Shown piece by piece: positions 678-62,608 of a DNA stretch of 64,000 nt. The notes under the pieces are model-generated. The model searched no databases and was not told the DNA's origin. It saw nothing but the letters and a program-made list of their open reading frames with translations. Source of the DNA: an uncultured virus (IMG/VR IMGVR_UViG_3300034062_006192) (Duplodnaviria > Heunggongvirae > Uroviricota > Caudoviricetes); IMG/VR virus record IMGVR_UViG_3300034062_006192; one strand, 5' to 3'. The translations under genes and the position numbers were made by a program. Numbering within the stretch: the first letter of the stretch is position 1; every line of letters begins with the position of its first letter.

Positions 678-2063
678 TCACACCTCCAGCTCCGCCACCT
701 CAATGACCATGGCCTCGTAGGCCTCGCGAGCGGCTGCATTGATCCAGCCCCGGGAGGGTGTCCAGACCGGATCCCCTGATGGCCAAGGCCTGGCGCCACC
801 GTTGGCTGGGTTGTTCTCAGTTTTGGGCCGGGGGGTGGTGGCCGGCAGGGCGGTGCGTTCCATCAGGGGGTAGTCCCGCGGGCCCCGGGGCTCACCGGTG
901 CCGCCGATCGGCCGCCAGGGCCTGCTGCTGGCCTCGTCGTACTTCTTGCGGGTCGCCGCGGCCAGGGCCTGCTGCTGATCCTCCCAGCGCTCGCGGCGGT
1001 TGGCCGCCAGCTGGTTCTGGATCACCAGCGCCTCCAGGGTGATCGGGGAGAGACTGCACCGGCATCGGGGATGGATGGGGGTCTTCACGCTGCCGGCGTA
1101 ATAGAGGCAGCCCATCCGGGGCGCGCAGAACTCGCAGACCCGATCGTCGGCGGTGGCCACGTACCGCACAAAGCCGACCCCGATCCGGCGGAAGGTGCGC
1201 TCCCTGGCCTCGCCGGCGGCGATGTGGGTTTCGGTGCGGGCCACGGTCTCGGCCCGGTTCCTGAAGGCGTCGTTGATGTGGGGCAGTCGGGCCTTGAGGG
1301 TGCGGGCCAGGGCGCGGCTGTCGACGCCGGTGGCCATCTGAGTGGCGGTCTCGAACTGCACGGCATCGCCCCAGTCGCGCCACCAGCGGAAGAAATAGTC
1401 CTTCGATGCCCAGACCCGATCGGAGGTGGCGGCGTTGCGCTGGCGGCGGTAGTTGGCGCTGAGGGTCTTGAAGTCCCGCTCCGAGGCTGCGATGACGGCC
1501 CCCAGGTTCAGGAGCCTGGTGAAGGACTGCCCCTCCTGGTAGGGGCTGCCCGGGGCCGGCGCATCGGTGGGGGCCGGTGGTGCCGCCGGTGGCAGCTGGG
1601 GATCCTGCAGCGACGGGTGGCGGCTGCTGAGCACGGCGGCCGGTGGGAGCATGTCCCGCGACAGCTCAAGGGCGTACTCAGTCCCCAGATCTTGGGCCCG
1701 GTTGTAGAGCTCCGTCAGCTCACGGTTCAGGGCTGCATTGGCTGCCCGATCGGCCGGGAAGCGGTTGATGATCGCCTGCAAGTCCTGGGCCAGCTGGCCC
1801 TGCAGGTAGAGGCTGGCCTGGTCTTTCTGCAGCGGGGTGATCGGCACCGGGCCATCCGGGGTGGAGCCCAGGAATGCGCCGGGGGTGGTGGCCGGGTCGT
1901 AGTCGGGCTGGGCCTCGATCCGCTCCAGGCGATCCATCAGGCTGCGGATGGTGCGGCGCAGCGCCTCATCGAAGATCCTCCGGAGCTTGCGCAGCTGCTG
2001 GTCCTCCAGGCCCCGCAGCTCCTGGTCGAGCTGCTCGATCAGCTCGATCGAGCGGTCAGCCAT
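678..2063 (-). CDS. phage head morphogenesis protein (Mu gpF / SPP1 gp7 family)
   Basis: RAETVARTET...ATADDRVCEFC...PIHPRCRCSL signature; lies downstream of the portal. Confidence 0.9.
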   Translation of the reverse strand: MADRSIELIEQLDQELRGLEDQQLRKLRRIFDEALRRTIRSLMDRLERIEAQPDYDPATTPGAFLGSTPDGPVPITPLQKDQASLYLQGQLAQDLQAIINRFPADRAANAALNRELTELYNRAQDLGTEYALELSRDMLPPAAVLSSRHPSLQDPQLPPAAPPAPTDAPAPGSPYQEGQSFTRLLNLGAVIAASERDFKTLSANYRRQRNAATSDRVWASKDYFFRWWRDWGDAVQFETATQMATGVDSRALARTLKARLPHINDAFRNRAETVARTETHIAAGEARERTFRRIGVGFVRYVATADDRVCEFCAPRMGCLYYAGSVKTPIHPRCRCSLSPITLEALVIQNQLAANRRERWEDQQQALAAATRKKYDEASSRPWRPIGGTGEPRGPRDYPLMERTALPATTPRPKTENNPANGGARPWPSGDPVWTPSRGWINAAAREAYEAMVIEVAELEV

Positions 2064-4164
2064 TCAGGGAGCCACAGAGCGCCCGCAGGCCATCGATCCG
2101 TTGCTGGAGCTTCCTCGGATGAGCTCGGCGATCGGCGGCCGCGGCCTGGTAGGCCTCCTGGAGCAGCCGCTGGATTCGCTCATCGCGGCTGTCGGTGCGG
2201 TTGTTGGGACCTGGGAACTTCTCCGCTTTGACCCGCGCAAGCAAAGCATCGAACATCGGCTCCATCTCTTCCGCCTGCTTGCGGGTGGGCCACAGCTCAT
2301 GTCCAGTAGGTTGGGTCAGGTAGGTGTTAACCCGTTTGGCCTTATCCAGCTTCAGCTGGACGTGGGCCTCGAATGCCCTGGCAAACATCTCCTCGCGGCT
2401 CGTCCAGTAGTCAGCGCTGATGCCTAAGCCGCCCTTCTTCATGCTCCGCACTGCCACCTGGACCTGATCTGCAAAGCCTGACTTGATCATCGACCACTGC
2501 ACCTGGTTCATGGACTCGATCAGCTCGGGGGTGCCTCTGTTCTGCGAAACGAAACCAGTGCCGCCTGCTGCGTAGTTGTCCAGCGCGTGCGCCCATTCGT
2601 GGGCAAAGGTGCCGACGCCGTTCTTGCGGGTGAGGTTGATCACCTTCAGGTCAGGCTCGAAGTGCGCCATGGCACCGCCTCGACCACGTGCACCAATAGC
2701 CAATCCCAAGGTGCCGTTTAGGCCAACTGCTCGGTCAGGCAGACCGGTCATGTCTGCCAGATCAACCATGGCTTCAGCGGCTTTCTGGACGTGGTGGCGG
2801 CGCTCATCGTCGGTGACCGAGTTGCCGTACTGCAGGCCGCGGAAGCCGAGCTTGTTGACGATGGTGTCGGTGGCGGCCTGGGCGGTGCTTCCAACCGAGC
2901 GGCCACCGACGCGGCGCTCTCCGGCCACGTAGAGGTCGGCGGCGCTGAATCGCTTCTTGCCACCCCCCTCCTTCCCGAAGGCGCTGCCGACAGTGGCGCC
3001 TTCCAGAATTTTCGTGCCGGTTTCCACGGCACGGGCCATAGATTTGCCTGCGTCAGATAAACCGGTTTCCGTTTTTAAGAACTTGGCGAACTCATTCATC
3101 TGCCCGTAGACAGTTGACGTCGAGCGCCCCGACATCATCAGTCGTTTCTGCATAGGCACCAGGGCATTAGCGGCTGGATTGAATGAATCTCTATAGGTCC
3201 TTGTATAGCCAGAACCCTCCAGGCCGCGGATGCGGTCGATGATGCCCCCAACTCTTTGCCCCAATGCCATGCGGAGCTTCCCGGGTGGCATGTCTTTGTT
3301 TTCTTCTACAAATGTACGAACTTCCTGAAAGGCGTCAAAGTATTGCTTGCGCACTGTTTTGGCGTCGACAGCTTGCTCGTCAGAAGTTGGTTTGCGGCCC
3401 GTGGCGCGGTCATACTCTGCGCTGTTCCGCTTACGCCGAGCGACGCCTTCGGTGTAGCTCTCAACGTCTTTTGCCGCAAGGTTTGGGAATGTCTTGAGGC
3501 TGTAGTGGGCCTCGAGGCGCGCAAGCACGTTCCCCTCATTGACACCACTGATCAGGTCCGTCGGGAAGTTCTTCATCAGGATGTCCCTGGTGAGGATCTT
3601 CTCCACTTGGCCACTGGCTTCGGCCTCCTCGATCGTTCTGAAAGCGTTGCGCCTGTGGCGGGCGGAGTCGACGATGTCCTCTCCTGCGTTGCCCACGGCC
3701 GAGGCCCGGGCGAACTCGTAATCCGGATCGCCTTCCTTGGCTGCCCGATCGGCCTCTCCCCTTGGCGTGCCGGCCGGGGCCTTGCCAGTGCTGGAGGGGG
3801 GCGTGGCCGCCTTGGCTGCTGCGGCCTCAGCCGCTTGCTTCTCTGCTGCTGCCTTGGCCTTCTCAGCGGCCACCTGCTGGCGCCCGCTGCGGAGCTGGCC
3901 CGCCTTCTCCCCCCGGCGGGTGGCGATCGCCCCGGCCAGCTCACCGGCCTCCTTCTGCCGCACCTGTGCAATCCCCCGCTGAGAGGAGGCCCCGCCGGCG
4001 GCAAGCGCGAGCAAGCGCTTCATGCGCTCCTTCCCCATCGCCGTTCGGGGAGTGGTGCGGCATTCCTTCCGCAAGCTGATGCAGGCGCTGCCGCAGCCGT
4101 AGCCGGTGCTGCACTTCTTCCGCAGGGCATCGAGTCGGTGCTGTAGCGAAACCGCCAGGCTCAT
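2056..4164 (-). CDS. large polyvalent-type protein: N-terminal Cys4 module plus C-terminal LPD1-like / zincin-like domain
   Basis: FRGLQYGN...LNGTLGLAIGARGRGGAMAHFEPDLKVINLTRKNGVGTFAHEWAHALD...YWTSREEMFARAFEA matches LPD1/DarA-like domains; translationally coupled to portal and gpF. Confidence 0.8.
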   Translation of the reverse strand: MSLAVSLQHRLDALRKKCSTGYGCGSACISLRKECRTTPRTAMGKERMKRLLALAAGGASSQRGIAQVRQKEAGELAGAIATRRGEKAGQLRSGRQQVAAEKAKAAAEKQAAEAAAAKAATPPSSTGKAPAGTPRGEADRAAKEGDPDYEFARASAVGNAGEDIVDSARHRRNAFRTIEEAEASGQVEKILTRDILMKNFPTDLISGVNEGNVLARLEAHYSLKTFPNLAAKDVESYTEGVARRKRNSAEYDRATGRKPTSDEQAVDAKTVRKQYFDAFQEVRTFVEENKDMPPGKLRMALGQRVGGIIDRIRGLEGSGYTRTYRDSFNPAANALVPMQKRLMMSGRSTSTVYGQMNEFAKFLKTETGLSDAGKSMARAVETGTKILEGATVGSAFGKEGGGKKRFSAADLYVAGERRVGGRSVGSTAQAATDTIVNKLGFRGLQYGNSVTDDERRHHVQKAAEAMVDLADMTGLPDRAVGLNGTLGLAIGARGRGGAMAHFEPDLKVINLTRKNGVGTFAHEWAHALDNYAAGGTGFVSQNRGTPELIESMNQVQWSMIKSGFADQVQVAVRSMKKGGLGISADYWTSREEMFARAFEAHVQLKLDKAKRVNTYLTQPTGHELWPTRKQAEEMEPMFDALLARVKAEKFPGPNNRTDSRDERIQRLLQEAYQAAAADRRAHPRKLQQRIDGLRALCGSLNG

Positions 4165-6128
4165 CCTTCTGCCCCATCCCCCGCAAGGTAGGCATCACAC
4201 AGGGCCCCCATCGCCACAAGGTCAAGGGCATTGATCTGGCGGATTGTGGGCTCGACGCCGATGGCATCACGGATCCCGCGCTGGTGCTGGTGCCCCATGG
4301 CCAGCAGGTAGGCGCCGCTGCTGGGCTCGAACACCTCCCAGGCGCCGCTCAGATCCGGACCCACCGCCACCGGGTAGGGCAGGGTCTGCCCGTAGGGGCC
4401 CATCAGGCGGCCGATGCCGGGGCCATCCATGCGGATCGACACCCCGAAGATCTGATGGATCTGGCCGGCGGCATCGCTGCGGGGCTCCTCATCCCGTCGG
4501 CGCTTGCGGCGGCCACGGTGCTCGGTGATCTGCTCGGCTAGTGCCTGGGCCCGCTCTTCGCAGGCATCACAGCAGGGCTCATCGGCGGCATCGTTGCGGG
4601 GCGGCGTCTGGGGCGGCGTGGCGCCCTCCAGCCCAGCATCACCGCCTGTGGCCGGAGCCTCCCCGGGGGTCGCTGCCGGGCCCCCCTCAAGGGTGCCGCC
4701 GAACTCCACCGGGGCCTCCTGCTTCGGCTGCGGGATGGATCCATCGTCCTCCCGATTCAACAGGGTGGTGTCCATGCTGAAGCGGGGCTTCCCGAAGCGG
4801 GCCAGGGCCACCTCGTTGGGCTGCAGCACACCGGCCTGGATGTACTGGGCGTCGGCTGTGGCGACCTTCGACCGCAGCTCAGCCTGTTCGTCTTCCGTGG
4901 GGGTGTAGGTGGGCCGGAAGGTGATCTCCCAGTCGGCGGGGGGGGCTTTCCCTTTCCATGGGCCTTCGGCGCAGGCCATCACCAACTCGTAGACCCGCCG
5001 CAGAGGCTCTTTGAGGTGCTGGGCCTGCCAGTCGGCCACCTCATTGCCAAAAGCGGCCTGCTCACTGCGGCCATCGGCCCCCAGGCCGGAAGGTGACTCA
5101 CCCCACAAAAGGGTGTGGGGGAGGCCTGATGCGCCGGTGATCTCGCTTTTAAGGTTGGCGATGATGTCGGCGATGCCGGCTGCCGAGCGATTGAGGTTGG
5201 TGAGCTCCTCGTTGTCGCTTAGGAGGTAGGCGCCGATGGTGCTGCGGGCCAGGGCGTTGGTCTGCAGGCGCTGGCGGAGCACATCTTCCCCACCTTTGGA
5301 AAGCATGTTGGTCAACCCCGGCAGCTTGTGCACCACCAGGTCGAAGTCGTGGAGGATGTCCGACGCCGATTGCTGGCCGGTCTCCCACCGCTTGAAGACA
5401 TCCCAGACCAGGTCCACCACGGAGACCCCCCACCCCTGCCGCTCCTGCTGTGACCGCCAGGAGCAGGGGAGCCCCTCGATGCGGATCACCCGGCTGCTGT
5501 GGATCTCAATTTGGGTGGCTTCGGTGAGGCCCAGGCCAGCACTGGTTACCACCTTGCTGCCGGCCTGATCGTTGAGCTTCTGCAGCTCCTGATCGGCCTG
5601 AGTCCAGAACCAATAGCTTTCCGGCTCGCCGATGCCGGACCAGCCGGCGGCGGGGTAGAGACGCCAACGATCGATCGGGTAGAAGCCGTGGATGGTCCGG
5701 AGCCGCTTGAGGTTCAGAGGCTTGTCGATCGGGGTGCGGTCGTCGGCGATCAGCACCAGGGCGCCACCGCCATAGAGGCGGCTGTAGGTGGCGGCCGCGG
5801 CCAGGCCCTGGCGGAGGTGGAGCTTTTCGGTCCAACCCACGACGTCATCGAGCTGGGCCTTCATGCGGCTGGAGGTTTCATCCCCCACCGACAGGTCCCA
5901 GCCGCTGCGGGTGCCCTGCTGGGGGAGTTTCTCCACGATCCGGCGGATCAGCCAGGACTGCTCATAGAGGGCATCGACAGCAGATTCAGAGAGGATCCGG
6001 CTGCGCTTGACGCCGATCGCTTCGTTTCGGTCCTTCGCGGTGCCCAGGCCGGTGAGGACGTTGATCAGGGCGCCATCAAGCCGCCACTCAGATCGGGAAT
6101 CAGCGGAGCTCAGGAAACCAATCGACAC
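4161..6128 (-). CDS. phage portal protein (DUF1073 type) with C-terminal extension
   Basis: LYEQSWLIRRIVE, SRLYGGGAL, IHSSRVIR, GLPHTLLWGESPSGL motifs; sits between terminase and gpF. Confidence 0.9.
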   Translation of the reverse strand: MSIGFLSSADSRSEWRLDGALINVLTGLGTAKDRNEAIGVKRSRILSESAVDALYEQSWLIRRIVEKLPQQGTRSGWDLSVGDETSSRMKAQLDDVVGWTEKLHLRQGLAAAATYSRLYGGGALVLIADDRTPIDKPLNLKRLRTIHGFYPIDRWRLYPAAGWSGIGEPESYWFWTQADQELQKLNDQAGSKVVTSAGLGLTEATQIEIHSSRVIRIEGLPCSWRSQQERQGWGVSVVDLVWDVFKRWETGQQSASDILHDFDLVVHKLPGLTNMLSKGGEDVLRQRLQTNALARSTIGAYLLSDNEELTNLNRSAAGIADIIANLKSEITGASGLPHTLLWGESPSGLGADGRSEQAAFGNEVADWQAQHLKEPLRRVYELVMACAEGPWKGKAPPADWEITFRPTYTPTEDEQAELRSKVATADAQYIQAGVLQPNEVALARFGKPRFSMDTTLLNREDDGSIPQPKQEAPVEFGGTLEGGPAATPGEAPATGGDAGLEGATPPQTPPRNDAADEPCCDACEERAQALAEQITEHRGRRKRRRDEEPRSDAAGQIHQIFGVSIRMDGPGIGRLMGPYGQTLPYPVAVGPDLSGAWEVFEPSSGAYLLAMGHQHQRGIRDAIGVEPTIRQINALDLVAMGALCDAYLAGDGAEG

Positions 6129-6165: not shown

Positions 6166-7092
6166 TTGGCTATATCACTGGCCAACGACGTTACGCGCCA
6201 TAGGCTGGGGCCGAACATCAGCCCTAGTCCATTGGGCGCCCCGCTCGATTCGCTGCTCGGTTCGTATGCGCGGCTGCCCATCCCCTCCAGGGAGGAGCAG
6301 GTGTTGCTGGGTCGGGCCATCCGGAAGTGGCTGGACTGGGATCCAGCTCCAGAGAAGGCCCCGCCTGGTGTGCAGCGGGCCGGCCGGCGGGCGCGGGATC
6401 GGATGGTGGCCCGCAACATGCTGCTGGTGGCGACACAGGCCCGCTCGTTTTCGGTGTCCTCGGTGGTGGCCCTGGAGCCGCAGGACCTGATCCAGGAGGG
6501 TGCGATCGGGCTCACCAGGGCGGCGGAGAAATACGACCCCACGCGGGGCTTCAGTTTCGCGACCTATGCGGTTCCGTGGATCCGGCAGTCGATGACCCGG
6601 CTGGTGCACACCTCCGGATCGATTCGACTCCCAGTGAAGCGGGCATCGAAGATGCACCAGCTGCGCCAATGGGTGGAGGCCTTCACAGCCCGTGAGGGCC
6701 GATCACCGACGGATCAGGAGGCAATGGAGGGGATGGAGATCAGCGCTGCTGACCTGCTGATCCTGCGGCAGGCGGCCGCCGTGCGGCAGGTGGTTTCGCT
6801 CGATGCCTTGGATTGCGATCGCGAGGGGCGCGGGGATACCCTCCTCGCCACCATGGCGGCACCAACGACAACAGAGGACATTGCAAACAGAGAGCGTGCC
6901 CAAGTGTTGGAGGCGCTGAAACCCTGGCCTGATCTGCAGGAGATCATGGAGCGCCGGCTGGACGGGCACAGCTGCCAGGAGGCCGGCCTGGCGATGGGGC
7001 TCACCCGATTGGCCGCCGAACGGCTGTGGGAGCAAGCACTGGCGATGGCGCAGCACCTGATGGGCGGCGATCACTGGCACGGCAGGTGCTAG
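6166..7092 (+). CDS. RNA polymerase sigma-70 family factor (RpoD/SigA-like)
   Basis: Region 1.2 and region 2 motifs (RARDRMVARNMLLV, DLIQEGAIGLTRAAEKYDPTRGFSFATYAVPWIRQ); region 4 degenerate; start codon uncertain. Confidence 0.9.
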   Translation: MAISLANDVTRHRLGPNISPSPLGAPLDSLLGSYARLPIPSREEQVLLGRAIRKWLDWDPAPEKAPPGVQRAGRRARDRMVARNMLLVATQARSFSVSSVVALEPQDLIQEGAIGLTRAAEKYDPTRGFSFATYAVPWIRQSMTRLVHTSGSIRLPVKRASKMHQLRQWVEAFTAREGRSPTDQEAMEGMEISAADLLILRQAAAVRQVVSLDALDCDREGRGDTLLATMAAPTTTEDIANRERAQVLEALKPWPDLQEIMERRLDGHSCQEAGLAMGLTRLAAERLWEQALAMAQHLMGGDHWHGRC

Positions 7093-8313: not shown

Positions 8314-8473
8314 GGTCTTCCCGGCCGGCTGGCGTGACAGCCCAGCAGCGGGAGCAGAGGCCATCACGGCCCGCACCACGGATCTGCTTCCCGCAGGTGG
8401 GGCACAGCCGCACCGGGGGGAGGGCGCCGGCCAGCCGGGCCCGGTAGCGGGCCCACTTTCTGGAGTCAGGCAT
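8264..8473 (-). CDS. small basic Cys4 zinc-finger protein (paralog of 59224..59430)
   Basis: MPDSRKWARYRARLAG..CPTCG..LCSRCW..TPAG; a clear paralog lies elsewhere in the window. Confidence 0.75.
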   Translation of the reverse strand: MPDSRKWARYRARLAGALPPVRLCPTCGKQIRGAGRDGLCSRCWAVTPAGREDLRQRVARSRQRAAGAS

Positions 8474-8867
8474 GGCGGCGGCGGCCCCTGGCGCGGCGTG
8501 CGCGCCGCTTGCGGCCGATGGGGCTGCCTCGCTTGGCTTCAATAATTAGGCGTTCAAGCACGGCCACAGTGCGATGGGCTGCAATGCCAAAGGGGCGGAA
8601 GGCTACCGCCAGCGGATCGGTGTCGGCCCCTAGGCCGGAGGGGGACTCACCCCATATCAGGGTGTGAGGCAGGCCGGAGGCGCCGGTGATCTCGCTTCTG
8701 AGGTTGGCGATCATGTCGGCGATGCCGGCTGCCGAGCGGTTGAAGTTAGTGAGATCTTCGCCCTCGCTCAGTTCGATAGCGGCGGTTCGCTGCCACTGAT
8801 CCAGCAGCTGTTGCTGCTCCTGGTTGAGAGGCGGGGGGAGGCCCGGCGGCCCGTGGGGGTCAGGCAT
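8466..8867 (-). CDS. chimeric protein containing a 50-aa portal fragment
   Basis: 43/50 aa identical to the portal segment LSDNEELTNLNRSAAG...GLGAD; Arg-rich tail. Confidence 0.7.
   Translation of the reverse strand: MPDPHGPPGLPPPLNQEQQQLLDQWQRTAAIELSEGEDLTNFNRSAAGIADMIANLRSEITGASGLPHTLIWGESPSGLGADTDPLAVAFRPFGIAAHRTVAVLERLIIEAKRGSPIGRKRRARRARGRRRHA
8623..8771. repeat. diverged copy (~85% nt) of portal segment 5074..5222
   Basis: Manual ungapped alignment, about 22 mismatches in about 149 nt. Confidence 0.9.
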
Positions 8868-9081
8868 CGTCAGCCTCTGCCAGCAGGCGGGCGGCTCTCG
8901 CAGCGGAGACCACACCGGAGTTGTTGCCATTCTCCAAAATTGCCAATGCCAAAACTTGAGAACGTTGCAGGCCCAAGGGGCTGTATTGGTCAATGAAGCT
9001 GCCTAGCCTGAGCACGGCTTCTTCAAGCTCTTGGCGATCTTGCTGTTGCTGAAAGTAATCGCGGGGGGTGGGGTCAGGCAT
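8860..9081 (-). CDS. hypothetical protein
   Basis: Starts MPDPTP; ATGCCTGA overlaps at both ends. Confidence 0.65.
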   Translation of the reverse strand: MPDPTPRDYFQQQQDRQELEEAVLRLGSFIDQYSPLGLQRSQVLALAILENGNNSGVVSAARAARLLAEADDA

Positions 9082-9560: not shown

Positions 9561-9845
9561 TCACCGGCCGCGACACTCAATCCTGCTAGCGAGAGCAACC
9601 CGATGAGGAAGGATCTCCCATAGGCGCGGCCGCTTCTCCAGCACGGCGGGGCACTGGCGCAGTAACCGGGCAGCCACGGCGGCCCCCAGGTGAAACACCT
9701 GGCCATTGGAATTGTGATGGCGCCCGTCAGGCCATAAACGCTCGGCAAGCGTGTTGGCTCGCAGCGTCGTTACGCCTTCACGGTGCATCTTCCCAATTTC
9801 GCGCATCACCACATCAGCGGTTGCGCGGTTTTGATGCGTTCTCAT
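9561..9845 (-). CDS. hypothetical protein
   Basis: MRTHQNRATADVVMRE...; tightly packed after the upstream ORF. Confidence 0.6.
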   Translation of the reverse strand: MRTHQNRATADVVMREIGKMHREGVTTLRANTLAERLWPDGRHHNSNGQVFHLGAAVAARLLRQCPAVLEKRPRLWEILPHRVALASRIECRGR

Positions 9846-9846
9846 G

Positions 9847-10167
9847 TCATGGGAAATAGATCGTGATCCAGTCCCACCTGACCTGGAACCACAGCCAGCA
9901 GCACATCCACTCGTAGGGCTCACGCCTTGGAATCAAGGGCAAGCCCCTGAACCTGCCTGCTTCAGGGAAGAACGTCACCGAGACCCGAACCGCCATCACG
10001 GGCTTCCCGTCAAGCTGGGGTCGACGGAACCAACCCCACTGAAGGCCGGAGCCGAAAAGCATGTGCCAGGCAAGGCAGGCCAGCCAGAGCCGCACCACAA
10101 TTCCCGTGAATGCCTGCACCACGGCGCTGGCGGTCAGCAATCCGTGGTGAACGTCCAGGAGGGTCAT
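9847..10167 (-). CDS. hypothetical Trp-rich protein, possibly membrane-associated
   Basis: ATGA overlap; hydrophobic N-terminus. Confidence 0.55.
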   Translation of the reverse strand: MTLLDVHHGLLTASAVVQAFTGIVVRLWLACLAWHMLFGSGLQWGWFRRPQLDGKPVMAVRVSVTFFPEAGRFRGLPLIPRREPYEWMCCWLWFQVRWDWITIYFP

Positions 10168-10391
10168 GGCTCGCGCCCCTCCTCTTTCGATGGCCCATAG
10201 GGGCACGAGCAAGCCAAACCGAAGAAGGAGTGTTCGGTCATGTCGTGCACCACGGCATCTCCGCAAACGATGCACTGCTTCATCTCGTCATTGATGCAGC
10301 CTCGGACACGGCTGATCGTGGGGCCGCCGACTGCCGCGCAGTCTTTGGGGCGGAAGAGGGGCATCATCAGGTACTGATGTTCTGGGTTCAC
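10164..10391 (-). CDS. hypothetical Cys-containing protein
   Basis: GTGA overlap with the terL stop; CIVC..CSC. Confidence 0.55.
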   Translation of the reverse strand: MNPEHQYLMMPLFRPKDCAAVGGPTISRVRGCINDEMKQCIVCGDAVVHDMTEHSFFGLACSCPYGPSKEEGREP

Positions 10392-11944
10392 ACCATCTTG
10401 ACCCATTCGGCCATCATCGGTCGAGTTCGGGCGCCGGCTTCACAAGCTGCAGCCAGGCTCATAACTGCGTCGTCGTGGCAGCCGGCTGCGGCCTCGCGGT
10501 TGCCGTCGGCCCCTTGGCGGAAGGTGCGCATCTGCTTGCCGTAGATGTCGTCCGGGGGGATCCCCAGCTCGCCCTGCTCCAACAACAACAGGACCCGGTC
10601 GGTCATGCGGATTTTCGAGGGCTTGGAGGTGGCGAACTCTTCGATCGGCACCCCGGGCCGGAGGATCGACAGGGCCTCCCCCACGTTGGCCCCGACGCCG
10701 TTGTTCTCGATCGCCACCATCTCGGGGCTGTACTCGTCGATCAGGCGGGCGGTGCGCTGCAGGCCGTAGTCGCGGCTGCGGCGGGCGTCGTTGAAACGGG
10801 CCACCACCTGCCAGGGGTTGGAGGTGATGTCGAGCACGGTGGTGACCCATTCGTCGTCGCCGGAGCCGTTGGGGTCGATCCCGATCACGTAGCTGTGGCC
10901 CCTGGTGGCCAGCTGCAGGCCGCCGATGGCCTCGGCCGCCTCGATCAGGTCGTGGGGGTAGACCTCAGCGTCAGTGGCGGCGAAGTCGAGCTCAAACTCC
11001 TGCCGGTAGCGCTGCTGGGTGAGCTGAAACTTGCGGCGGGTGTTCTCTGGATAGTCCGGATCCAGCGAATAGATCGGGTGCTGGCTCCAGTGGATCGCCA
11101 CCTTGGCGAACTGGCCATCGGGAGAACAGCGCAGCGTGGGGATGTCGTTGACGAAGCTGTCGCCGACCTGCACCTCGCCGTGGTCGGTGCTCCAGTGCTC
11201 GTAGAACCGGCCGCTGCGGCCGTTGGGGGTGGAGACCCACACGGCCCTGGCCCGGGCCCCCAGCAGGGAAAGGGTGGGCATGGCACCGGTCTCGATGCCG
11301 GCCAATTTCTCGATGAAGGCACCCTCATCGAAAAGGACCATTGAGGCCGACGGGATGCCCCGGGCGGCCCGCTCGGTGGGGGGCAGGAAGTGGAGGCTGC
11401 CGCGGCCCTGGAAGACCAGCTTGCGGGCGCTGTCCTTCGGCAGGGGAGGGCAGGCGGAGCCCAGGGAGGCGGCCTGGCCCTTGATCCGTGCCGCCAGCTC
11501 GCTTGCGTCCTCCCCGGTCTTGCTGAAGATGATCCCGACCCACGCCGGCCGTTGGATGGCCTGCTGGAGCATGTAGGAGATGATCGTCTCGGAAACACCG
11601 GTCTGGCGGCTCTTGTTGACGTAGGTGTTCTGGTGGCCCCGGATCGTGCGGATCAGGTCCAGCTGGTAGTCCCAAGGCCTGAAGCGCAGGTACTTGCCCT
11701 GGGAGGCGATGTAGGTTCGGGCGGCAAAGTCGGGCCAGCGCTTCGGGAGCTGGTCCCATGGCAGCACCTGCTGGCTCTGGCTGAAAATCCCCCGGCGGGG
11801 CACGTAGCGCAGCAGGGGGCGCACCACCCGCTTCGGCTTGGGGAGGTGCAGGCCTGCGGGGCCCTTGCGGGGCCAGGAGAAACAGGGGGTCTGGGTGCGC
11901 AGCTGGGCGTCGTATTCGGCCCAGGCCTCGTCATCCCAGGCCAT
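10388..11944 (-). CDS. terL: terminase large subunit
   Basis: Walker A KSRQTGVS, Walker B VLFDEGAF, STPNG coupling motif, nuclease motifs IGIDP and HDDAVMSLA. Confidence 0.95.
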   Translation of the reverse strand: MAWDDEAWAEYDAQLRTQTPCFSWPRKGPAGLHLPKPKRVVRPLLRYVPRRGIFSQSQQVLPWDQLPKRWPDFAARTYIASQGKYLRFRPWDYQLDLIRTIRGHQNTYVNKSRQTGVSETIISYMLQQAIQRPAWVGIIFSKTGEDASELAARIKGQAASLGSACPPLPKDSARKLVFQGRGSLHFLPPTERAARGIPSASMVLFDEGAFIEKLAGIETGAMPTLSLLGARARAVWVSTPNGRSGRFYEHWSTDHGEVQVGDSFVNDIPTLRCSPDGQFAKVAIHWSQHPIYSLDPDYPENTRRKFQLTQQRYRQEFELDFAATDAEVYPHDLIEAAEAIGGLQLATRGHSYVIGIDPNGSGDDEWVTTVLDITSNPWQVVARFNDARRSRDYGLQRTARLIDEYSPEMVAIENNGVGANVGEALSILRPGVPIEEFATSKPSKIRMTDRVLLLLEQGELGIPPDDIYGKQMRTFRQGADGNREAAAGCHDDAVMSLAAACEAGARTRPMMAEWVKMV

Positions 11945-12429
11945 CAGAAATCGCCTTCACGGTCCATGGCCTCCTGCTCCTCTGGTGTGAGGCTGTTGGC
12001 ACCGGCACCGCCGTCGCCGCTCTCCTGCTGCTCCCGCTCGAACTTATCGACGGAGAGGATCAGCTGGTTGATCTCCCGGTTCACTCCCAGGGCGGTGCTG
12101 AGCTGCTTCTCGGCCATGCACGTTTTCAGGAGGTGCTCCATGCGGCTGACCTGGATGGAGGCCAGGCGCAACCGGTCGTAGAGGCTGACAGCGGTGCTGC
12201 AGAGGTCGTAGGCCTCCTGCACCAGCCTGGCGGCCACGGCGGGGGAGACTCGCCAGCCCTTGACGGCCACGTCCATCAGATCCATGGGGCCATAGCCCCG
12301 TTTCACCGCCATTCCCAGCAGGGCATGGACCCGGTAGTTCCTCTCAGCGGCCCTGGATAGGGAGCGGTCCTTTGTCTTTGCCTTGCCCCGGGGCTTTCGT
12401 TTGGCGCCAGCTTCTCCGTTGCTGCTCAC
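11944..12429 (-). CDS. putative terminase small subunit
   Basis: Helical protein coupled (TGATG) to terL; GTG start after AGGAGG; assignment is positional. Confidence 0.55.
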   Translation of the reverse strand: MSSNGEAGAKRKPRGKAKTKDRSLSRAAERNYRVHALLGMAVKRGYGPMDLMDVAVKGWRVSPAVAARLVQEAYDLCSTAVSLYDRLRLASIQVSRMEHLLKTCMAEKQLSTALGVNREINQLILSVDKFEREQQESGDGGAGANSLTPEEQEAMDREGDF

Positions 12430-55286: not shown

Positions 55287-56219
55287 TCAGCCGCCGTCCT
55301 CGATGTAGAGGAACGCGAGGGGAAATTCGGGGATGAAACCGCCGCTCTTGCTCATCGAGGGAACGACGAACTTGAGGTTCTTCGGCTGGGGGGGGAGGAA
55401 GGTGAGGGGCAGCGGGATGTGAAACTTCCCTTTGGTTGGATCCTTCCGGTAGAAGAGCATCCGGCGAGCGGTGAGGTTGCCGCCGGAGTTGGCCGGGTCG
55501 AGCTCGTTGATCGGCTCCACGCTGGTAATTTCGGGGTTCTGCTTCATAAACAGCTCCAGCACTGATGTGTTGTCGGTGGAGCTGCGGCAGGTGGTGGAGA
55601 CGATTCGGTGATCCGATTCACCCATCAGAACCGCGTTGGGCGATTCCACCTGCTTGGAGTTGACCCGCATCTGAGTCTTCCCGAAGTTGAGCAGATCGAG
55701 CATCTGCTGGGGCGTGGTGTTGGGGTCATTGAACCAGGCATCAGAGGAGTTACCGGTCACCACCACACGGTCGATGGCGGGGTGGTTGAGCATGCCGCGC
55801 AGGCCGGTGCCGGCCCGGCCGAACAGGCAGGTGAGGTTGTTGCGGCGCTCGTAGGCGTCGCGCACCGCATCGGCTCGCTCGCTGGTGAGGGCCACGCCGG
55901 CCATTTTTGCCGATAGCAGCTCGGACTGGGTGTAGTGGAATGATCCACCAAATTCTCTCGTCTCGTTGACGATCTCCCCGACCTTCACGCCGGACACCGG
56001 CAGGTCGTCGGCAGCGTCGGAAATCAAATCAAAGTTGCCGGTGCGATCCCAGATGGTGCGCTTGATCGACGTGGCGCCGGGGTCCACCTCGAAGGAAACG
56101 GGGCAGATCTTGGGGTAGACGATCTCGGCGTAAGGCTTGCGCAGAACACCAGGGATGATGTGCTGCAGCTGATCGGCGAGGAACGCTCCCTCGCTGTAGT
56201 TGTCCAGGCGGTGGCTCAT
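55287..56219 (-). CDS. major capsid protein (DUF2184 / HK97 fold)
   Basis: FLADQLQHI, ADDLP, YTQSEL, GLRGMLNHP, PLPLTFLPPQ. Confidence 0.9.
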   Translation of the reverse strand: MSHRLDNYSEGAFLADQLQHIIPGVLRKPYAEIVYPKICPVSFEVDPGATSIKRTIWDRTGNFDLISDAADDLPVSGVKVGEIVNETREFGGSFHYTQSELLSAKMAGVALTSERADAVRDAYERRNNLTCLFGRAGTGLRGMLNHPAIDRVVVTGNSSDAWFNDPNTTPQQMLDLLNFGKTQMRVNSKQVESPNAVLMGESDHRIVSTTCRSSTDNTSVLELFMKQNPEITSVEPINELDPANSGGNLTARRMLFYRKDPTKGKFHIPLPLTFLPPQPKNLKFVVPSMSKSGGFIPEFPLAFLYIEDGG

Positions 56220-56878: not shown

Positions 56879-58201
56879 TCAGGCGGCCGTGGCCTGCCAG
56901 GCATTCGCCACCGCCTGCCGGTGCTCCGCCGCAGCTGCAGCGATGCCGTCGCCGCTGCTATCGCTGCGGGGGGTGGTGAGGCCCTGCAGCTGGCGGGCCA
57001 GCAGGTTGGCGGCATTGGGGGCGTAGGGGATCTTTTCGGCGCTCTCAAACGCGGCATCGAAGCGAGCGGCGATGTACTCATCGCTGCGGCTCTCGATGCC
57101 ATCGATCCGCACCTCAGCGGCCCCCAGGGCCAGCACCATCACCTCGCGGTTGGAGAGGCCGTCATGGCGCTCACGGTTGCCGGTGAGCTCACCGGCCTTC
57201 TCCAGCACGTCGACACGCTCGGCCACCAGCTTCTGGATCAGCTCAGGATCGGGCTCAGGGGCAGAGTCGTTGCGCTCGGCCACCAGCTGCTCCAGCTCAG
57301 CGAGCTGCTCAGAGAGGCTGTCGAAACGCAGCTCAGCGGCGGCAAGGTCGTCAACAGTGGCCTTGTAGACAGCCCAGGGGACGGTCCGGCCGGGGGTGGC
57401 GGAGTCGCCACGGGTTTTCTTGCCCTTGGCATTGGTCATGCCGTAGCCGTCTTCCTTCTCCTGGTCGTCGTCGCCGGCCATGCCGTCGTCGCCTTCCATG
57501 GCTTCGGGGTCCATCTCTTCCTTGGCCTTGGCCTTGGCCTTGGCGTCGGTTTCGCCGGCGGGGGTCTTCATGTCGGTGCGATCAGTGGCGGGCTGGCTGG
57601 AAGTAGCCATGGAGGTGTCCTCAAAGGAAGGAATGAGATCGGCAGAAACCGCGACGATCGGCTGGTCGTCGCCGGCGGCGGAGTCGAAGTGCAGGCGCAC
57701 CTCCGACCCGGCCCGGGCCTTGCGGGTGATGGCGTGGTGGTTGCCGGAGATGGCGCGCTGCACGCCGTCGTAACGGGTGCCGTCCGGGGCGACACCGGGG
57801 GTGGCGTCGTACTCGCAGCGGTAGCCGACCGACAGCTCGGTGGCGTCGCCACGCTTGACGGCCTCGATCGCCTCACGGTCGGTGAGCACGACAGTGCCGT
57901 GGACAAACCCGTTGTCGTAGACCACGTGGGTGCCGGAAGCGCCCCGCTGGTACTGCCGGGCCGTGTCCGGGGTGAGCAGCTGGGGCGGGTGCTCCAGGGT
58001 CACCGGCAGGCCGCCCAGGGACAGGAAGCTGTCCTGGCGGGCCACCTCCGACTCGGGGCGGTACTCGACACGCTGCGAGCCATCCGGGTTGCTGTAGGTC
58101 TGGCAACCGGTGCGGGCAAAGGTGGCGCGAATGCGCAGGAATCCCTCGGGGGTCTCCACCCAGTTGCCCGTAATGCTGGAGCGATCGAAACGAAACTGCA
58201 C
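56879..58201 (-). CDS. DUF2213 protein (putative prohead protease-scaffold)
   Basis: TPEGFL..FARTG..YRP..PVTLEHP..ELSVGY..YDGVQR..NHHAI..ARAG; coiled-coil C-terminus. Confidence 0.9.
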   Translation of the reverse strand: MQFRFDRSSITGNWVETPEGFLRIRATFARTGCQTYSNPDGSQRVEYRPESEVARQDSFLSLGGLPVTLEHPPQLLTPDTARQYQRGASGTHVVYDNGFVHGTVVLTDREAIEAVKRGDATELSVGYRCEYDATPGVAPDGTRYDGVQRAISGNHHAITRKARAGSEVRLHFDSAAGDDQPIVAVSADLIPSFEDTSMATSSQPATDRTDMKTPAGETDAKAKAKAKEEMDPEAMEGDDGMAGDDDQEKEDGYGMTNAKGKKTRGDSATPGRTVPWAVYKATVDDLAAAELRFDSLSEQLAELEQLVAERNDSAPEPDPELIQKLVAERVDVLEKAGELTGNRERHDGLSNREVMVLALGAAEVRIDGIESRSDEYIAARFDAAFESAEKIPYAPNAANLLARQLQGLTTPRSDSSGDGIAAAAAEHRQAVANAWQATAA

Positions 58202-58276: not shown

Positions 58277-58504
58277 ATGGCAACACTCCTGCCTGACGCG
58301 ATGGTTCGCCGGCTGTTGGGTGCACGTTTGGGCGTGATCTTGCAACAGCGGGGCGTCAGCCAGCAGCAGCTGGCGGAGCAGTTGGAGGTGCACCGCAGCG
58401 CCGTCAGCCGCTGGTGCTCAGGCGAGCGTGATCCGAACCCTGGCCAGCTGCGATCGATCTGCCTGCTGCTGGCAATTGATCCGGCCCTGCTGCTGGGGCT
58501 CTAA
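58277..58504 (+). CDS. XRE-family HTH regulator
   Basis: VSQQQLAEQLEVHRSAVSRWCSGERDP. Confidence 0.85.
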   Translation: MATLLPDAMVRRLLGARLGVILQQRGVSQQQLAEQLEVHRSAVSRWCSGERDPNPGQLRSICLLLAIDPALLLGL

Positions 58505-58654
58505 TCAGCTGGCCTTTGGCCGCTTGCCCCGTGCCGCGGCCACCGGTGGGGCCTCCTGCAGGCGCAGCATCACGGTGGTCTCCACAGCCACGTTGGCCCA
58601 GTCGATGGCCTCGCCATCGCTGCGGGGGGCCTGGGGGGTGGCGGGGGTGGGCAT
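58505..58654 (-). CDS. small hypothetical protein (49 aa)
   Basis: MPTPATPQAPRSDGEAIDWANVAVE...; preceded by the CTAGCCT motif; not in the supplied track. Confidence 0.45.
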   Translation of the reverse strand: MPTPATPQAPRSDGEAIDWANVAVETTVMLRLQEAPPVAAARGKRPKAS

Positions 58655-58790: not shown

Positions 58791-58867
58791 GCCGGCCATA
58801 GGCGTAAAACCGGGCCGATCCGCTCCCAGCAGTCCGGGAGTGTCAACCCTTGCTCCCCACTTCAGCC

Positions 58868-59439: not shown

Positions 59440-61878
59440 TCAATAGTTGTATCTAATTCCCCGCGCCTCAAGCGTCTTCGCGCCAAAGTCAGGAGTTATT
59501 TTCTGCCGCGTGCTGTAAATCGGCCTTGAAAGGAACGCACTCTTCCACGCCATATCTTTTTCTTCTTGGGTCGCCTTGTGTTTGGCCCCATGCTTTATTG
59601 CCAGCCCTGACACAAAAGTTAAAAAGGTTTGCCTGCGATGGCTCACTTTTTTGGCCGCGACCTTTTGCGTTTCGGTAAGGCTAGAGAGTTCACGTTCTCG
59701 CTTGGACCGACGTGTCAGCCTGCCCTGAATCGACTCTTTTGTTAATGCAACGCGTCTGTAAGACGGGGCCAATGCCATATTTGCACTCCTCCCCTTCGTT
59801 TCGCTGCGGAGCTTAACAGCCTCTTGACCAGGCTCAGCAGGCTTGGCTGCAGCCGCTTTCGCCGCGGCCTGCTGGCGAGCACCGCGCAGCTGGCCGGCCT
59901 TGGCCCCTCGCTGCTGCTCAATCCCGGCGGCCAGGCCGGCGGCCTCCTGGGCCCGCACTGGGGCGATGCCCCGCTGGCCGCTGGTGCCGCCGGCCGCCAG
60001 GGCCAGCAGCTTGCGCATTCGCTCCTTCCCCATGGCCGACTGGGGCTGGCTGCGGCATTCCTTCCGCAGGGAGATGCATGCCGACCCGCACCCATAGCCG
60101 GTGCTGCATTTCCGTTTAAGGGCATCGATCCGCTCCTGCAGGCTGTCGGCCCAGGGCCGCTTGCGCAGTCCCACCGCCTCCAGCTCTGCCTGCACCGCCT
60201 TGAAGACATCCTGCTCCAGCTCCTTCCGCACCGTGGCCTCGGCCTCGCCAGCCTCGACCCGATCGGCGGCACGGTTTAGGGCGGAGCTGATCGGGCCAGA
60301 GGAGCTCTTCAGCCGCTCGAACACCCCCAGGGCCTCGCTGGCCTCGCCGGCCACCTTGGCGCTCTGCTCCTGGTTGATCACGTTCCCGCCCTTCTCGGTC
60401 AGGCTGCTGGCGGCCTTGGCCTTGCTGACGGTGGAGAAGAGGCGCTTCTCCCGGGCGATCTTGGCCTTCAGACCGGCGGACAGCTTGGCCCGGGTAAGCA
60501 GGTTGTCCTTGGCCTCCTCGGTCTCGCCGAACAGGCTCATCGTGGTCTGAGTGCGTTGCACGCTGGCAGCGGCATGCTCCACCAGCTCCTGCAGGGTCTG
60601 ATCGGTGATGGCCTTACGGGAGCCGATCATCTTGAACACCTCCCGCTGCTTGGTGTCATCGAGGCCACTGCCGCCGATGATCGCCCCGCGGTTTACGGTC
60701 AGGTCACCCCGCACCACGGCGTTGAAGACGTCGCCAGGCAACTTGCTGAGGCTCAGCCCCTTGGAGGCCTGGCCGCTGCCCAGGGGCAGGCCCCGGGCCT
60801 CCACGTCCTGCTGGCTCTTGATGCCGGTGTCGCGGAAGAACTTGGCCGCATCCATTGGGCTGCCAGCCCCCTCGGCGATGTTCTGCAGGGCCCCGATCGC
60901 CCGGGCCTCGGTGGCGGTGGCGGCGTTCAGGAACCGCACGGTGACGGCCTCCGCCCCCAGGCGGTTGGCCAGGGCCAGCCTGTTATGGCCATTGATCACG
61001 TAGACCTTGCCGTCGCCTGGGTCCTTCCAGACAGCCATCACGCCGGAGAGGTTGGCGTCCCACTTGCGCACCCCCGACAGGCTGCCCACCTCGCCGGTGG
61101 TGGCGGTGGCGTTGAGCTTGTACTGGAACCGGGAGGGATCGAAGCCGATCTCCCCTGGCTTCATCTCCCGGACGGTCCCGGGCTCGGTGGAGCTGTTGGC
61201 CCCGGATGGGAGCTTGCCGGTGCGCAGGAACTCGGCAATCTCCGGCCGCTCGAGCAGCTTCTGCACCCGTTGGGTGGTGCGGTCCTTCTGCAGGGCCGCT
61301 GCGGCCGCCCCGCGGGAGGCCTGCACCTGGCTGGCAGTGGCCCTGGCCGACTGGTCGCCGGCGGCAGCCAGCTGCTGGAGGCGCCGCAGGCGGCCCTTGC
61401 CGAGCGCTGAACGGGGGGCGATCCGGCACTCCTTCTGGAGGGAGATGCAGGCGTTGCCGCAGCCGTAGCCCGTCGCGCATTTCCGCTTCTGGCCACTGCC
61501 GGCCCGGGTGCGGCGGAAGTCCATCCGGGAGCCGGGGGCCCGCAGTTGCAGGAACGAATCCGATCGCAGCTCCCAGCCACGCTGCAGCACCCCCTCCCAA
61601 GCGGGGCGATAGCCGACGCCTTCGGCATCGATACGGAACCGGTAGACCAGGCCATCGGCGGCCATCCGCCCGGCATGGGCAGCACCCTCCTGCCGCCAGT
61701 CGAGCACCAGGGCGCCGGGGAGCACTTCGGCCAGTACCTCCTGCAGCACCGGGGAGACCCGATCGCCAGCGTCATGCCGCAGGGCCATGGGCTGCCGGGG
61801 CAGGGCCTGCCGGTTTGTCGAGACAAGCTGGGCCTCGATGGCCGAGAGGCGATCCAGCAGGGACTGGTGGCGACTCAT
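59440..61878 (-). CDS. polyvalent-type protein with a ParB-like domain and two Cys4 modules
   Basis: DPSRFQYK...YVINGHNRLALA..NIAEG ParB-like core; C(S/A)TGYGCG.ACISL.KECR twice. Confidence 0.8.
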   Translation of the reverse strand: MSRHQSLLDRLSAIEAQLVSTNRQALPRQPMALRHDAGDRVSPVLQEVLAEVLPGALVLDWRQEGAAHAGRMAADGLVYRFRIDAEGVGYRPAWEGVLQRGWELRSDSFLQLRAPGSRMDFRRTRAGSGQKRKCATGYGCGNACISLQKECRIAPRSALGKGRLRRLQQLAAAGDQSARATASQVQASRGAAAAALQKDRTTQRVQKLLERPEIAEFLRTGKLPSGANSSTEPGTVREMKPGEIGFDPSRFQYKLNATATTGEVGSLSGVRKWDANLSGVMAVWKDPGDGKVYVINGHNRLALANRLGAEAVTVRFLNAATATEARAIGALQNIAEGAGSPMDAAKFFRDTGIKSQQDVEARGLPLGSGQASKGLSLSKLPGDVFNAVVRGDLTVNRGAIIGGSGLDDTKQREVFKMIGSRKAITDQTLQELVEHAAASVQRTQTTMSLFGETEEAKDNLLTRAKLSAGLKAKIAREKRLFSTVSKAKAASSLTEKGGNVINQEQSAKVAGEASEALGVFERLKSSSGPISSALNRAADRVEAGEAEATVRKELEQDVFKAVQAELEAVGLRKRPWADSLQERIDALKRKCSTGYGCGSACISLRKECRSQPQSAMGKERMRKLLALAAGGTSGQRGIAPVRAQEAAGLAAGIEQQRGAKAGQLRGARQQAAAKAAAAKPAEPGQEAVKLRSETKGRSANMALAPSYRRVALTKESIQGRLTRRSKRERELSSLTETQKVAAKKVSHRRQTFLTFVSGLAIKHGAKHKATQEEKDMAWKSAFLSRPIYSTRQKITPDFGAKTLEARGIRYNY

Positions 61879-62327
61879 CGATCAGGGATCTCCTTCCACG
61901 GCCGGGGCGGCGTCAAGCGGCTGCGCAGGTGGTCCCTTGCGGCATCACTCGCGGATGAGGCTGCAAAGGCGTTCTGGGCCTTCATTTCTTTGGCTGGGAT
62001 CATTCCGGCGGCTTCGGCGGCAGCCTGCAGCCGCTCCGGGCTGATGGCCTCGATCTGCTGCTGCAGAGCCAGGGCAGGCTTCACCGCCGCCTCCAGAGGC
62101 TCGATCTGCTGCTGCAACTGGAGGACCGGCCCCAGCGTCACCTTCAGGTCTGCGATGCGCTTGGTGGCCGCTGCATGCAGCCGCTCCTCCAGCCCCTCAA
62201 AGGCCGTGTCGATCCGGTCTTCCGCCCGATCCAGCGCGGCATCGATCGCACCATCCAGCTGGGCGCGGACCTTGAGCGCCAGCTTCGTGGCGAGGTGATC
62301 CAGCAGGCCCTCGATCCAGTTCATCAC
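61875..62327 (-). CDS. hypothetical helical protein
   Basis: Coupled at both ends; internal LQQQIE repeat. Confidence 0.7.
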   Translation of the reverse strand: MMNWIEGLLDHLATKLALKVRAQLDGAIDAALDRAEDRIDTAFEGLEERLHAAATKRIADLKVTLGPVLQLQQQIEPLEAAVKPALALQQQIEAISPERLQAAAEAAGMIPAKEMKAQNAFAASSASDAARDHLRSRLTPPRPWKEIPDR

Positions 62328-62608
62328 GATGCCCCCAGGCGGGCTTTCATGCGCTCGATCCGGGCCTGGAGAGTGCTGTCCTCCCGGCCGCCGCCGGCCT
62401 GGCCCTTGGGCTTGTAGGTCACCATTCCGCCCTTGGTGAACTTGAAGGTGAAGCGCGTCTGGTTCGATATGAACTCGCCTTGGGGCTCACCGCCGGCATC
62501 GGAAATCGCCACGATCCGCACCGGGCGGATCTGTTCACTCAGCAGCTCAGTGGCCAGCCGCACCATTTCAGTTCGTCGATCCACAGGGCCTGCAGCGTTC
62601 TGAGTCAA
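62324..62608 (-). CDS. hypothetical protein
   Basis: Coupled to the downstream gene; resembles the N-terminal domain of 59440..61878. Confidence 0.65.
   Translation of the reverse strand: MTQNAAGPVDRRTEMVRLATELLSEQIRPVRIVAISDAGGEPQGEFISNQTRFTFKFTKGGMVTYKPKGQAGGGREDSTLQARIERMKARLGAS

Follow-up and report, generated by a model that had tools for sequence, protein, structure and literature searches.

Could a cysteine-rich repeat that stands in front of unrelated domains among the head genes of a tailed phage be part of a device that carries enzymes into the host together with the phage genome? The question is raised by a window of 64,000 nucleotides (the whole stretch of DNA analysed here, bases 1–64000 of the 70,720-base virus record IMGVR_UViG_3300034062_006192, which is classed as linear and has no end repeats). 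Our analysis indicates that the repeat is genuine and forms a junction unit that has not been described so far, although the system to which it belongs is of a known kind. With roughly even confidence, we propose that it joins the parts of head-cargo polyproteins, each unit consisting of a prohead-protease site (Arg-x-Asp, RxD) followed by a basic knuckle with four cysteines (Cys4) that would tether the cargo to the packaged DNA.

A profile search of the whole genome found exactly three copies of the module, at 3976–4146, 59971–60141 and 61339–61500, all on the minus strand and in open frames. The Cys4 pattern, present three times in the window, had a mean of 0.03 in 200 triplet shuffles, and three was reached by 0 of the 200. 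Identity to copy 1 over 93 columns is 72% for copy 2 and 48% for copy 3; all three have four cysteines, and the RxD site lies 8 residues before the first cysteine (Cys1) in copies 1 and 2 and 16 residues before it in copy 3. A preliminary description of this DNA had named the threefold occurrence, the RxD site before each copy, and an LPD1-like region, a basic tail of low guanine-plus-cytosine (GC) content and a ParB-like domain as partners, and all of these were recovered. It had also placed each copy in front of a different cargo domain; the copies are indeed three, but their carriers are only two open reading frames (ORFs), copies 2 and 3 sharing one of 812 amino acids (aa). The parts of the two carriers, in window positions, are as follows.

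2056..4164, minus strand: ORF A, 702 aa; short leader, RLD site, Cys4 module, uncharacterised middle, HEWAH zincin-like region with LPD1, C-terminal junction stub
3871..4149, minus strand: module copy 1; RLD at 4129–4137, Cys4 knuckle at 4060–4113, then two predicted helices
2221..2601, minus strand: core of cargo 1; HEWAH motif (2587–2601, aa 522) and Pfam LPD1 match (aa 584–648, E 5e-13)
2059..2115, minus strand: C-terminal junction stub of ORF A; helix, RID, one cysteine
59440..61878, minus strand: ORF B, 812 aa; leader domain, RSD and RMD sites, module, ParB-like cargo, RID site, module, basic tail
61591..61767, minus strand: second shared domain (the leader domain of ORF B), about 58 aa; helix and four-strand meander, upstream of the RxD sites
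61252..61527, minus strand: module copy 3; RMD at 61519–61527, Cys4 knuckle at 61426–61479
60247..61200, minus strand: ParB-like cargo; PHROG 21 positions 1009–1328, GHNR at 60979–60990
59866..60144, minus strand: module copy 2; RID at 60124–60132, Cys4 knuckle at 60055–60108
59440..59829, minus strand: low-GC basic tail, a portable cassette behind module copy 2

In ORF A, the HEWAH motif and LPD1 sit 400–550 residues downstream of module copy 1, and longer relatives continue at the stub with a full module and further cargo (a DnaJ or ART cassette). A Pfam scan of ORF B gave no match; its first cargo is recognised by PHROG 21 and by the GHNR motif, which we take to be ParB/Srx-like. The basic tail of 129 aa has 29 Lys + Arg vs. 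11 Asp + Glu and a GC content of 0.51 vs. 0.73 in the module.

Where do the carriers sit? ORF A lies between the portal and MuF genes, which together with the terminase occupy the minus strand at one window end; ORF B lies upstream of the protease and capsid genes, the minus strand at the other end holding ORF B, a DUF2213 head maturation protease, a cement protein and the major capsid protein. The head-module setting expected for the carriers is supported. If the genome ends join, both ORFs would lie between portal and protease. The neighbours that matter for the argument are the following.

4161..6128, minus strand: portal protein (PHROG 146), the immediate upstream neighbour of ORF A; C-terminal part with RxD[AS] sites
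678..2063, minus strand: MuF minor head protein, the immediate downstream neighbour of ORF A; neither RxD[AS] site nor module
56879..58201, minus strand: DUF2213/PHROG 530 head maturation protease-scaffold with 7 RxD[AS] sites, the likely junction-cutting enzyme
55287..56219, minus strand: major capsid protein (PHROG 264) with an N-terminal RLD in register with the cut measured in phage TLS

Is RxD the site at which this protease cuts? Among close relatives, RxD occurs within 30 residues before 215 of 216 module copies, and exactly 8 residues before in 158. We compared observed and expected numbers of RxD[AS] in three DUF2213 phages, namely this one and the cultured PaV-LD and CL131. In the portal/protease/capsid sets, the numbers were 10 vs. 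1.8 (this phage, MuF included), 11 vs. 1.0 (PaV-LD) and 8 vs. 1.3 (CL131), a five- to elevenfold enrichment; in the carriers, they were 7 vs. 1.4, 8 vs. 1.7 and 6 vs. 1.1, respectively, a four- to fivefold enrichment. The tail and non-virion sets of the same phages showed no significant increase. Furthermore, the mature capsid protein of phage TLS starts with ASDMGIW by Edman sequencing (PMC11447400), and in the deposited TLS capsid sequence these residues directly follow KND, which is in register with the capsid RLD of this phage. The TLS protease is homologous to the one here (34%, E 4e-22), as are the capsid proteins, and [RK]xD is found in the first 30 residues of 76 of 81 capsid homologues; the exceptions are fragments or begin with the motif itself. 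Based on the TLS N-terminus and the motif enrichment, we strongly infer that the DUF2213 protease would cut after [RK]xD; the capsid RLD stands at the position cut in the homologous TLS system, while the cargo junctions share the motif only. As a side observation, the Edman sequence implies the removal of 27 residues from the TLS capsid protein (L064 15087–16061; codes with L, P and G are our own labels).

The carriers themselves can be followed into particles in a relative. PaV-LD and CL131 each have 7 module copies, and those of CL131 lie in ORFs 044, 045, 047 and 048, four of them in ORF048. Purified CL131 particles contain 23 proteins (PMC6293099, SI Table 5), and all 4 carriers are among the virion proteins of that table (PMC6293099). 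Moreover, ORF048 and ORF045 have the two highest spectral counts, 175 and 123, vs. 86 for the capsid protein (PMC6293099). For ORF081 of PaV-LD, PMC10343443 merely repeats the label 'virion structural protein'. The presence of carriers in virions, and with it the previously proposed loading, is well supported for the CL131 homologues (4/4) and would hold by homology for this phage.

Could the carriers instead decorate the exterior of the particle, the disulfide knuckle binding the cell surface as its secreted cellular relatives might? The CL131 proteome does not locate proteins within the particle, and the knuckle motif also occurs in apparently secreted proteins. However, the carriers share their enrichment in RxD[AS] with the portal, protease and capsid proteins, whereas tail and outer proteins show none, and the cargos are enzymes of the cytosolic type. 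We regard exterior decoration as the least probable of the readings considered here.

How much of the module is common to its relatives? These comprised 44 loci from a scan of viral contigs, 193 proteins found by profile search (120 of them listed) and 387 representatives at 50% identity (150 of them listed). Conservation between lineages is confined to the knuckle C-x2-8-CG-x2-C-[IVL]-x3-7-C (about 18 aa), the basic flanks around it and the site upstream, and the helices after the knuckle are lineage-specific. From picocyanobacterial phages to PaV-LD, CL131 and phages of the Mu type, the cysteine spacing is preserved, in contrast to the diverging flanks. The module of about 100 aa that had been described therefore stands among close relatives, but a family-wide 100-aa domain was rejected. 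The AlphaFold model of the module (pLDDT 78.5) consists of a leader helix, two short strands that carry the cysteines, and two helices. A fold search with this model gave no meaningful match (best Z 5.0, helices only), and in a search of viral structures no match reached E 0.001, with a protein of PaV-LD length ranked first. Likewise, no Pfam or NCBIfam model matched (one chance AWS hit was under the cut-off), the PHROG matches were confined to unnamed stretches of PHROG 33618 and 16619, and the best E in a sequence search of the PDB was 0.86. The ESM Atlas held no usable module match, with a small cellular homologue only in unnamed clusters below 0.9.

Behind this small conserved core, the cargo varies widely. 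In 122 related proteins, 81 of which have 2–3 Cys4 modules, the 233 segments behind modules fell into 20 single-linkage clusters (7 shorter segments were excluded), with ParB-like and lipase cargo among them. Pfam scans of 66 + 75 proteins matched, among others, LPD1, zincin M90, ART, kinase/APH, Zeta, DnaJ, GNAT, alpha/beta hydrolase and LRAT families, many carriers giving no match. The claim that the module has different partner domains is thereby upheld, and so is the claim that cargo is swapped at the module. Among 56 ParB-like cassettes that are followed by another module, 136 of the 318 pairs with at least 85% identity upstream have non-homologous tails, and homology in these 136 pairs stops inside the module, about 20–100 residues after Cys1 (median 64). 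ORF B itself is 93–96% identical upstream to proteins with kinase, ART or other tails, and its basic tail recurs behind a module in four other proteins, at different positions, once as a stand-alone protein of 218 aa. Such sequence comparisons give good support to cassette exchange.

Would the unit then be a mere recombination handle that travels with the cassettes, the knuckle having no task as a protein? Breakpoints do cluster in the module, RxD lies in the last 30 residues of 73 of the 122 carriers (many of these being stubs with one cysteine), and the genome has an Erf-like annealing gene at 22246–23265. On the other hand, cysteine spacing is kept across distant phages while the flanks diverge, and copies 1 and 2 share 192 of 279 bases, with a longest identical run of 18 and with 28 synonymous and 26 non-synonymous codon changes, which makes a mere handle very improbable. 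The same comparison led us to reject a recent duplication inside this genome. Because copies 1 and 2 share so few bases, exchange between orthologous copies of co-infecting phages would be the more likely route, and the Erf-like protein could serve it. Contigs of 4 sequencing runs offered weak joints only (21–25 letters on the short side) and did not show swapping, and no viral locus was found for P0188 or P0185. Separately, L070 has two carrier genes (9743–12049) that run against the head operon around them and look like a block insertion. Six related loci conserve a 49-aa ORF that has an RSD site and follows ORF B closely on its downstream side (58505–58654, minus strand). P0153 contains a homologue of this ORF joined to a complete Cys4 module, and in run X3 one contig has a 20-letter loose end at this ORF that reads as a junction stub.

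What, then, would the knuckle do as a protein? Its cysteines offer one clue. Cys2 and Cys4 are invariant in the family, and among matches picked with a Cys4 profile, Cys1 is present in 303 of 303 cores that have Cys3 and in 1 of 47 cores with W/H/F/Y in the place of Cys3. The remaining 46 of these 47 variants lack both Cys1 and Cys3, so four zinc ligands are not kept family-wide, and an obligatory zinc site was rejected. The knuckle motif also occurs, usually twice, in small cellular proteins whose N-termini look signal-peptide-like, as judged by eye. Because Cys1 and Cys3 are lost together and the motif is found in such proteins, we favour two disulfides over a required zinc, although zinc may still be bound in the cytosol. 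Two further observations concern the motif. Small cellular proteins without a family name (L063 9848–10093 from Celeribacter, and P0206–P0241) are almost wholly made of 1–3 knuckle copies behind signal-peptide-like starts, and at like junctions in L042, L043 and L044 and in proteins such as P0045 and P0049, a third pattern, C-x-RPDG-x2-YG with a later C, is found together with two-cysteine variants.

Disulfides would also suit a redox or metal switch, in which the cargo is inactive or cross-linked in the particle and is freed in the reducing cytosol of the host. The joint loss of Cys1 and Cys3 with Cys2 and Cys4 invariant, the homologous motif in apparently secreted proteins, and the many cargos (ART, kinase, Zeta) that could harm the producing cell are in keeping with it. 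Yet the folds behind this single type of knuckle are unrelated and in many cases lie over 80 residues from it, and the cytosol of the producing cell is reducing as well. A switch is therefore unlikely in our judgement.

Position and charge offer a second clue. The knuckle stands behind the site, is repeated at each internal cassette, and is kept in fusions to the portal (P0208, P0185, L072) and to MuF (L051, L060). For these reasons, it is more likely to act after cutting than as a loading signal of the T4 type. Its surroundings are basic, with a median charge of +6 in 366 copies and +12 to +15 over 85 residues in this phage, and the module occurs with two capsid families, PHROG 264 and 1005. 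Given this charge and two capsid families to serve, DNA would be the simplest common partner, and we consider a DNA tether a moderately supported inference.

The strongest competitor places the task before the cut: the knuckle would recruit the cargo into the prohead by binding the scaffold, the leader domain or the inner face of the capsid. Apart from a leader of 10–20 residues, the knuckle is all that the N-termini of ORF A and many other carriers have in common, the leader domain and knuckle occur together in both head types, and the presence of 4/4 CL131 carriers in virions also suits a loading signal. However, T4 propeptides and the P1 DarA N-terminus precede the cut, whereas the knuckle would follow it; moreover, a loading signal is hard to square with a knuckle at each internal cassette, with its retention in portal and MuF fusions, and with its occurrence beside both PHROG 264 and PHROG 1005 capsids. 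We see recruitment as a possibility of limited likelihood. The same observations weaken the earlier idea of a capsid-targeting tag; DNA binding, which had been offered as its alternative, would fit the charge.

If the knuckle does not load the cargo, what precedes the site might. The preliminary description had recognised neither RxD as a likely protease site nor the second shared domain of ORF B. This domain also occurs in a stand-alone form, as follows.

62324..62608, minus strand: stand-alone form of the second shared domain, 94 aa; followed by a REDS site and a helix, without cargo

An iterated profile recovered this domain in PaV-LD, CL131 and one Mu-type locus as well, and the kinship of the two window copies, which gave no pairwise alignment, is seen through that profile (E 3e-17). 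As a rule, the domain is followed by the site, and in most fusions, the knuckle comes about 20–60 residues later. Its model (pLDDT 71) resembles arrangements of the cystatin, PepSY and kinase N-lobe kind (best Z 6.7), which are not distinctive, and has weak fold matches to proteins of PaV-LD and CL131 length. Standing before the site, the domain would be cut off, which makes it a candidate loading propeptide or adaptor. Between its stand-alone form and ORF B lies a 150-aa ORF (61875–62327, minus strand) that looks helical and has no family match.

Taken together, the junction reading suggests the following course. Cassettes made up of site, knuckle, helices and cargo move between related phages, the breakpoints falling in the module, as the comparison shows, recombination being the presumed cause. 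Carriers are packed into the particle, as in CL131 and by extension here, and loading would be directed by what precedes the site, be it the leader helix of 10–20 residues, the 58-aa leader domain or a fusion to portal or MuF. The DUF2213 protease would then cut after RxD, to judge from the TLS N-terminus and the motif enrichment, so that the knuckle would be retained as the new N-terminus of each released cargo. In the free virion, it would probably be closed by Cys1–Cys3 and Cys2–Cys4 disulfides. By binding DNA, it may allow the cargo to be ejected with the genome, the weakest step of the scheme, and judging from their domain types, the cargo enzymes would act early in infection.

Does the unit depend on one type of head? 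In some module matches, the same ParB-like cargo is fused to a portal of the Mu type. Where the protease belongs to PHROG 976 (six loci), [DENT]F[ASRK] precedes 13 of 13 copies (12 distinct) and RxD precedes 1 of 13; in eight DUF2213 loci, RxD precedes 31 of 32 copies (one antisense chance match was dropped from these counts). Furthermore, L070 combines the capsid family of this phage with a PHROG 976 protease, has no capsid RxD, and uses the F site. These patterns suggest that the site tracks the protease family. They also lend themselves to a broader proposal, which we put forward tentatively and with less than even confidence. The unit would belong to a cyanophage delivery kit independent of head type, with a loading leader, a protease-matched site (RxD or xF), a disulfide knuckle that clips enzymes to the genome and whose DNA is the point of exchange, and a traffic of the knuckle from or to small secreted cellular proteins. 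The site before the ParB-like cassette (61519–61527 and its orthologues) reads RMDF and fits both the RxD and the xDF patterns; it is possibly a relic of transfer between head types.

Several points weigh against these proposals. The CL131 table resolves whole ORFs only, not the position of peptides or the inside and outside of the shell. Basic charge alone is no proof of DNA binding, neutral to acidic surroundings (down to −3) are seen in a few copies, and the Cys1/Cys3 counts were made on sequences picked with a Cys4 profile. As for the cut, the MuF protein of this phage has no RxD[AS], one PaV-LD copy (ORF080) has no site, TLS has KND in place of RxD, and its authors surmised a 45-residue propeptide (PMC11447400). 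The F pattern is also found at 8 of 32 copies of the DUF2213 type, its motif is over-represented in the non-virion proteins of this phage (11 vs. 3.8), and the plain pattern is not enriched in the protease/capsid set of the Mu-type phage G001 (1 vs. 1.7). In addition, both patterns were chosen after the sequences had been seen, several loci are close kin (four DUF2213 loci are near the window phage), the search that yielded the Mu-type loci used an alignment whose seeds were F-type copies, and a literature search found no measured cut for a PHROG 976 protease.

To which known system does this one belong? The closest likeness is to the phage-type polyvalent proteins, which combine several unrelated domains in one late-gene polypeptide and for which packaging and injection have been proposed (Iyer et al. 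2017, PMC5512222). The two groups draw on a common stock of zincin HExxH, LPD1, ParB-like and ART domains and of MuF and portal fusions (PMC5512222). In line with this, ORF B has two cargos, the domains are typical and the genes lie among those for virion packaging; a search of ORF B for HExxH gave no match. For polyvalent proteins, release by metallopeptidase autoproteolysis was proposed (PMC5512222), whereas here each junction has a site of the prohead-protease type and a cysteine knuckle; the word 'cysteine' occurs 0 times in the main text of PMC5512222.

The T4 proteins IPI–III and Alt are likewise basic head cargo with a short N-terminal leader up to a head-protease site, the cargo varying between phages (PMC9026906). 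According to the same source, their shared signal, the capsid targeting sequence, is a propeptide that gp21 cuts and removes (PMC9026906), whereas here the shared folded unit lies behind the site, inside polyproteins and with two protease families. The knuckle, 8–16 residues behind the presumed cut at RxD, would thus not be a signal of that kind; the short leader before RxD could be one.

The P1 proteins DarA, Hdf and DdrB are internal head proteins with an N-terminus cut by the prohead protease, a basic surface on DNA, and co-ejection (PMC12810830, PMC5512222), and DdrB joins a ParB-like to a zincin domain (PMC5512222). The passages considered here mention no cysteine knuckle or cassette junction (PMC12810830, PMC5512222). 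Models of DarA and Hdf gave no reported match among the 22 and 26 window proteins scanned, a subset of the ORFs. The Mu-type relatives recall MuF-fused polymorphic effectors, in which a variable enzyme behind a structural protein enters the head (PMC5512222, PMC9503650). ORF A and ORF B themselves have no MuF match, MuF being a separate gene here and part of the carrier in the relatives L051 and L060. MuF-fused effectors also take a toxin–immunity form, with the immunity gene adjacent. The TLS head resembles that of this phage in its homologous protease and capsid protein and in a capsid N-terminus right after [RK]xD (PMC11447400); its annotated head region, on the other hand, has no large cargo genes. 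Searches of literature listings, with subscription papers (T1 proteome) and the supplements of PMC5512222 outside their scope, turned up nothing that describes the knuckle, an RxD rule or a switch of site, and neither did the available text of PMC9503650.

For polyvalent and MuF-type cargo, loading, cutting and ejection are mostly conjecture; here, the junctions carry a motif that can be tested in the cultured CL131 and PaV-LD. The motif predicts the cleavage rule of the widespread DUF2213 proteases, and a cargo signal is seen to change with the protease family. With the module as a sequence handle, the enzymes that bloom-infecting cyanophages inject can be catalogued, and for cyanobacteria the module could be put to use as a tag for packaging and delivery.

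Because contigs of Cyanobium genome bins carry close module relatives (77–82%) and DNA of this phage is present in lake metagenomes (24 sequencing runs with DNA, no RNA run being among those listed), a freshwater picocyanobacterium is the likely host. No tRNA genes were found. An ORF at genome positions 68282–69334, outside the window, which we take to be integrase-like from its motifs, suggests a temperate phage. Among the neighbouring genes, a 175-aa ORF (8466–8993, minus strand) is a second, partial portal copy (Pfam portal positions 219–286, E 2e-6), 2.3 kb from the portal gene. A sigma-70-like factor (6166–7092, plus strand) lies on the opposite strand between terminase and portal, and a gene resembling it adjoins the protease of G001 (L052 1358–2233). 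Between ORF B and the protease, the opposite strand holds a 107-aa ORF of lower GC content (58850–59173, plus strand) and a helix-turn-helix gene (58277–58504, plus strand).

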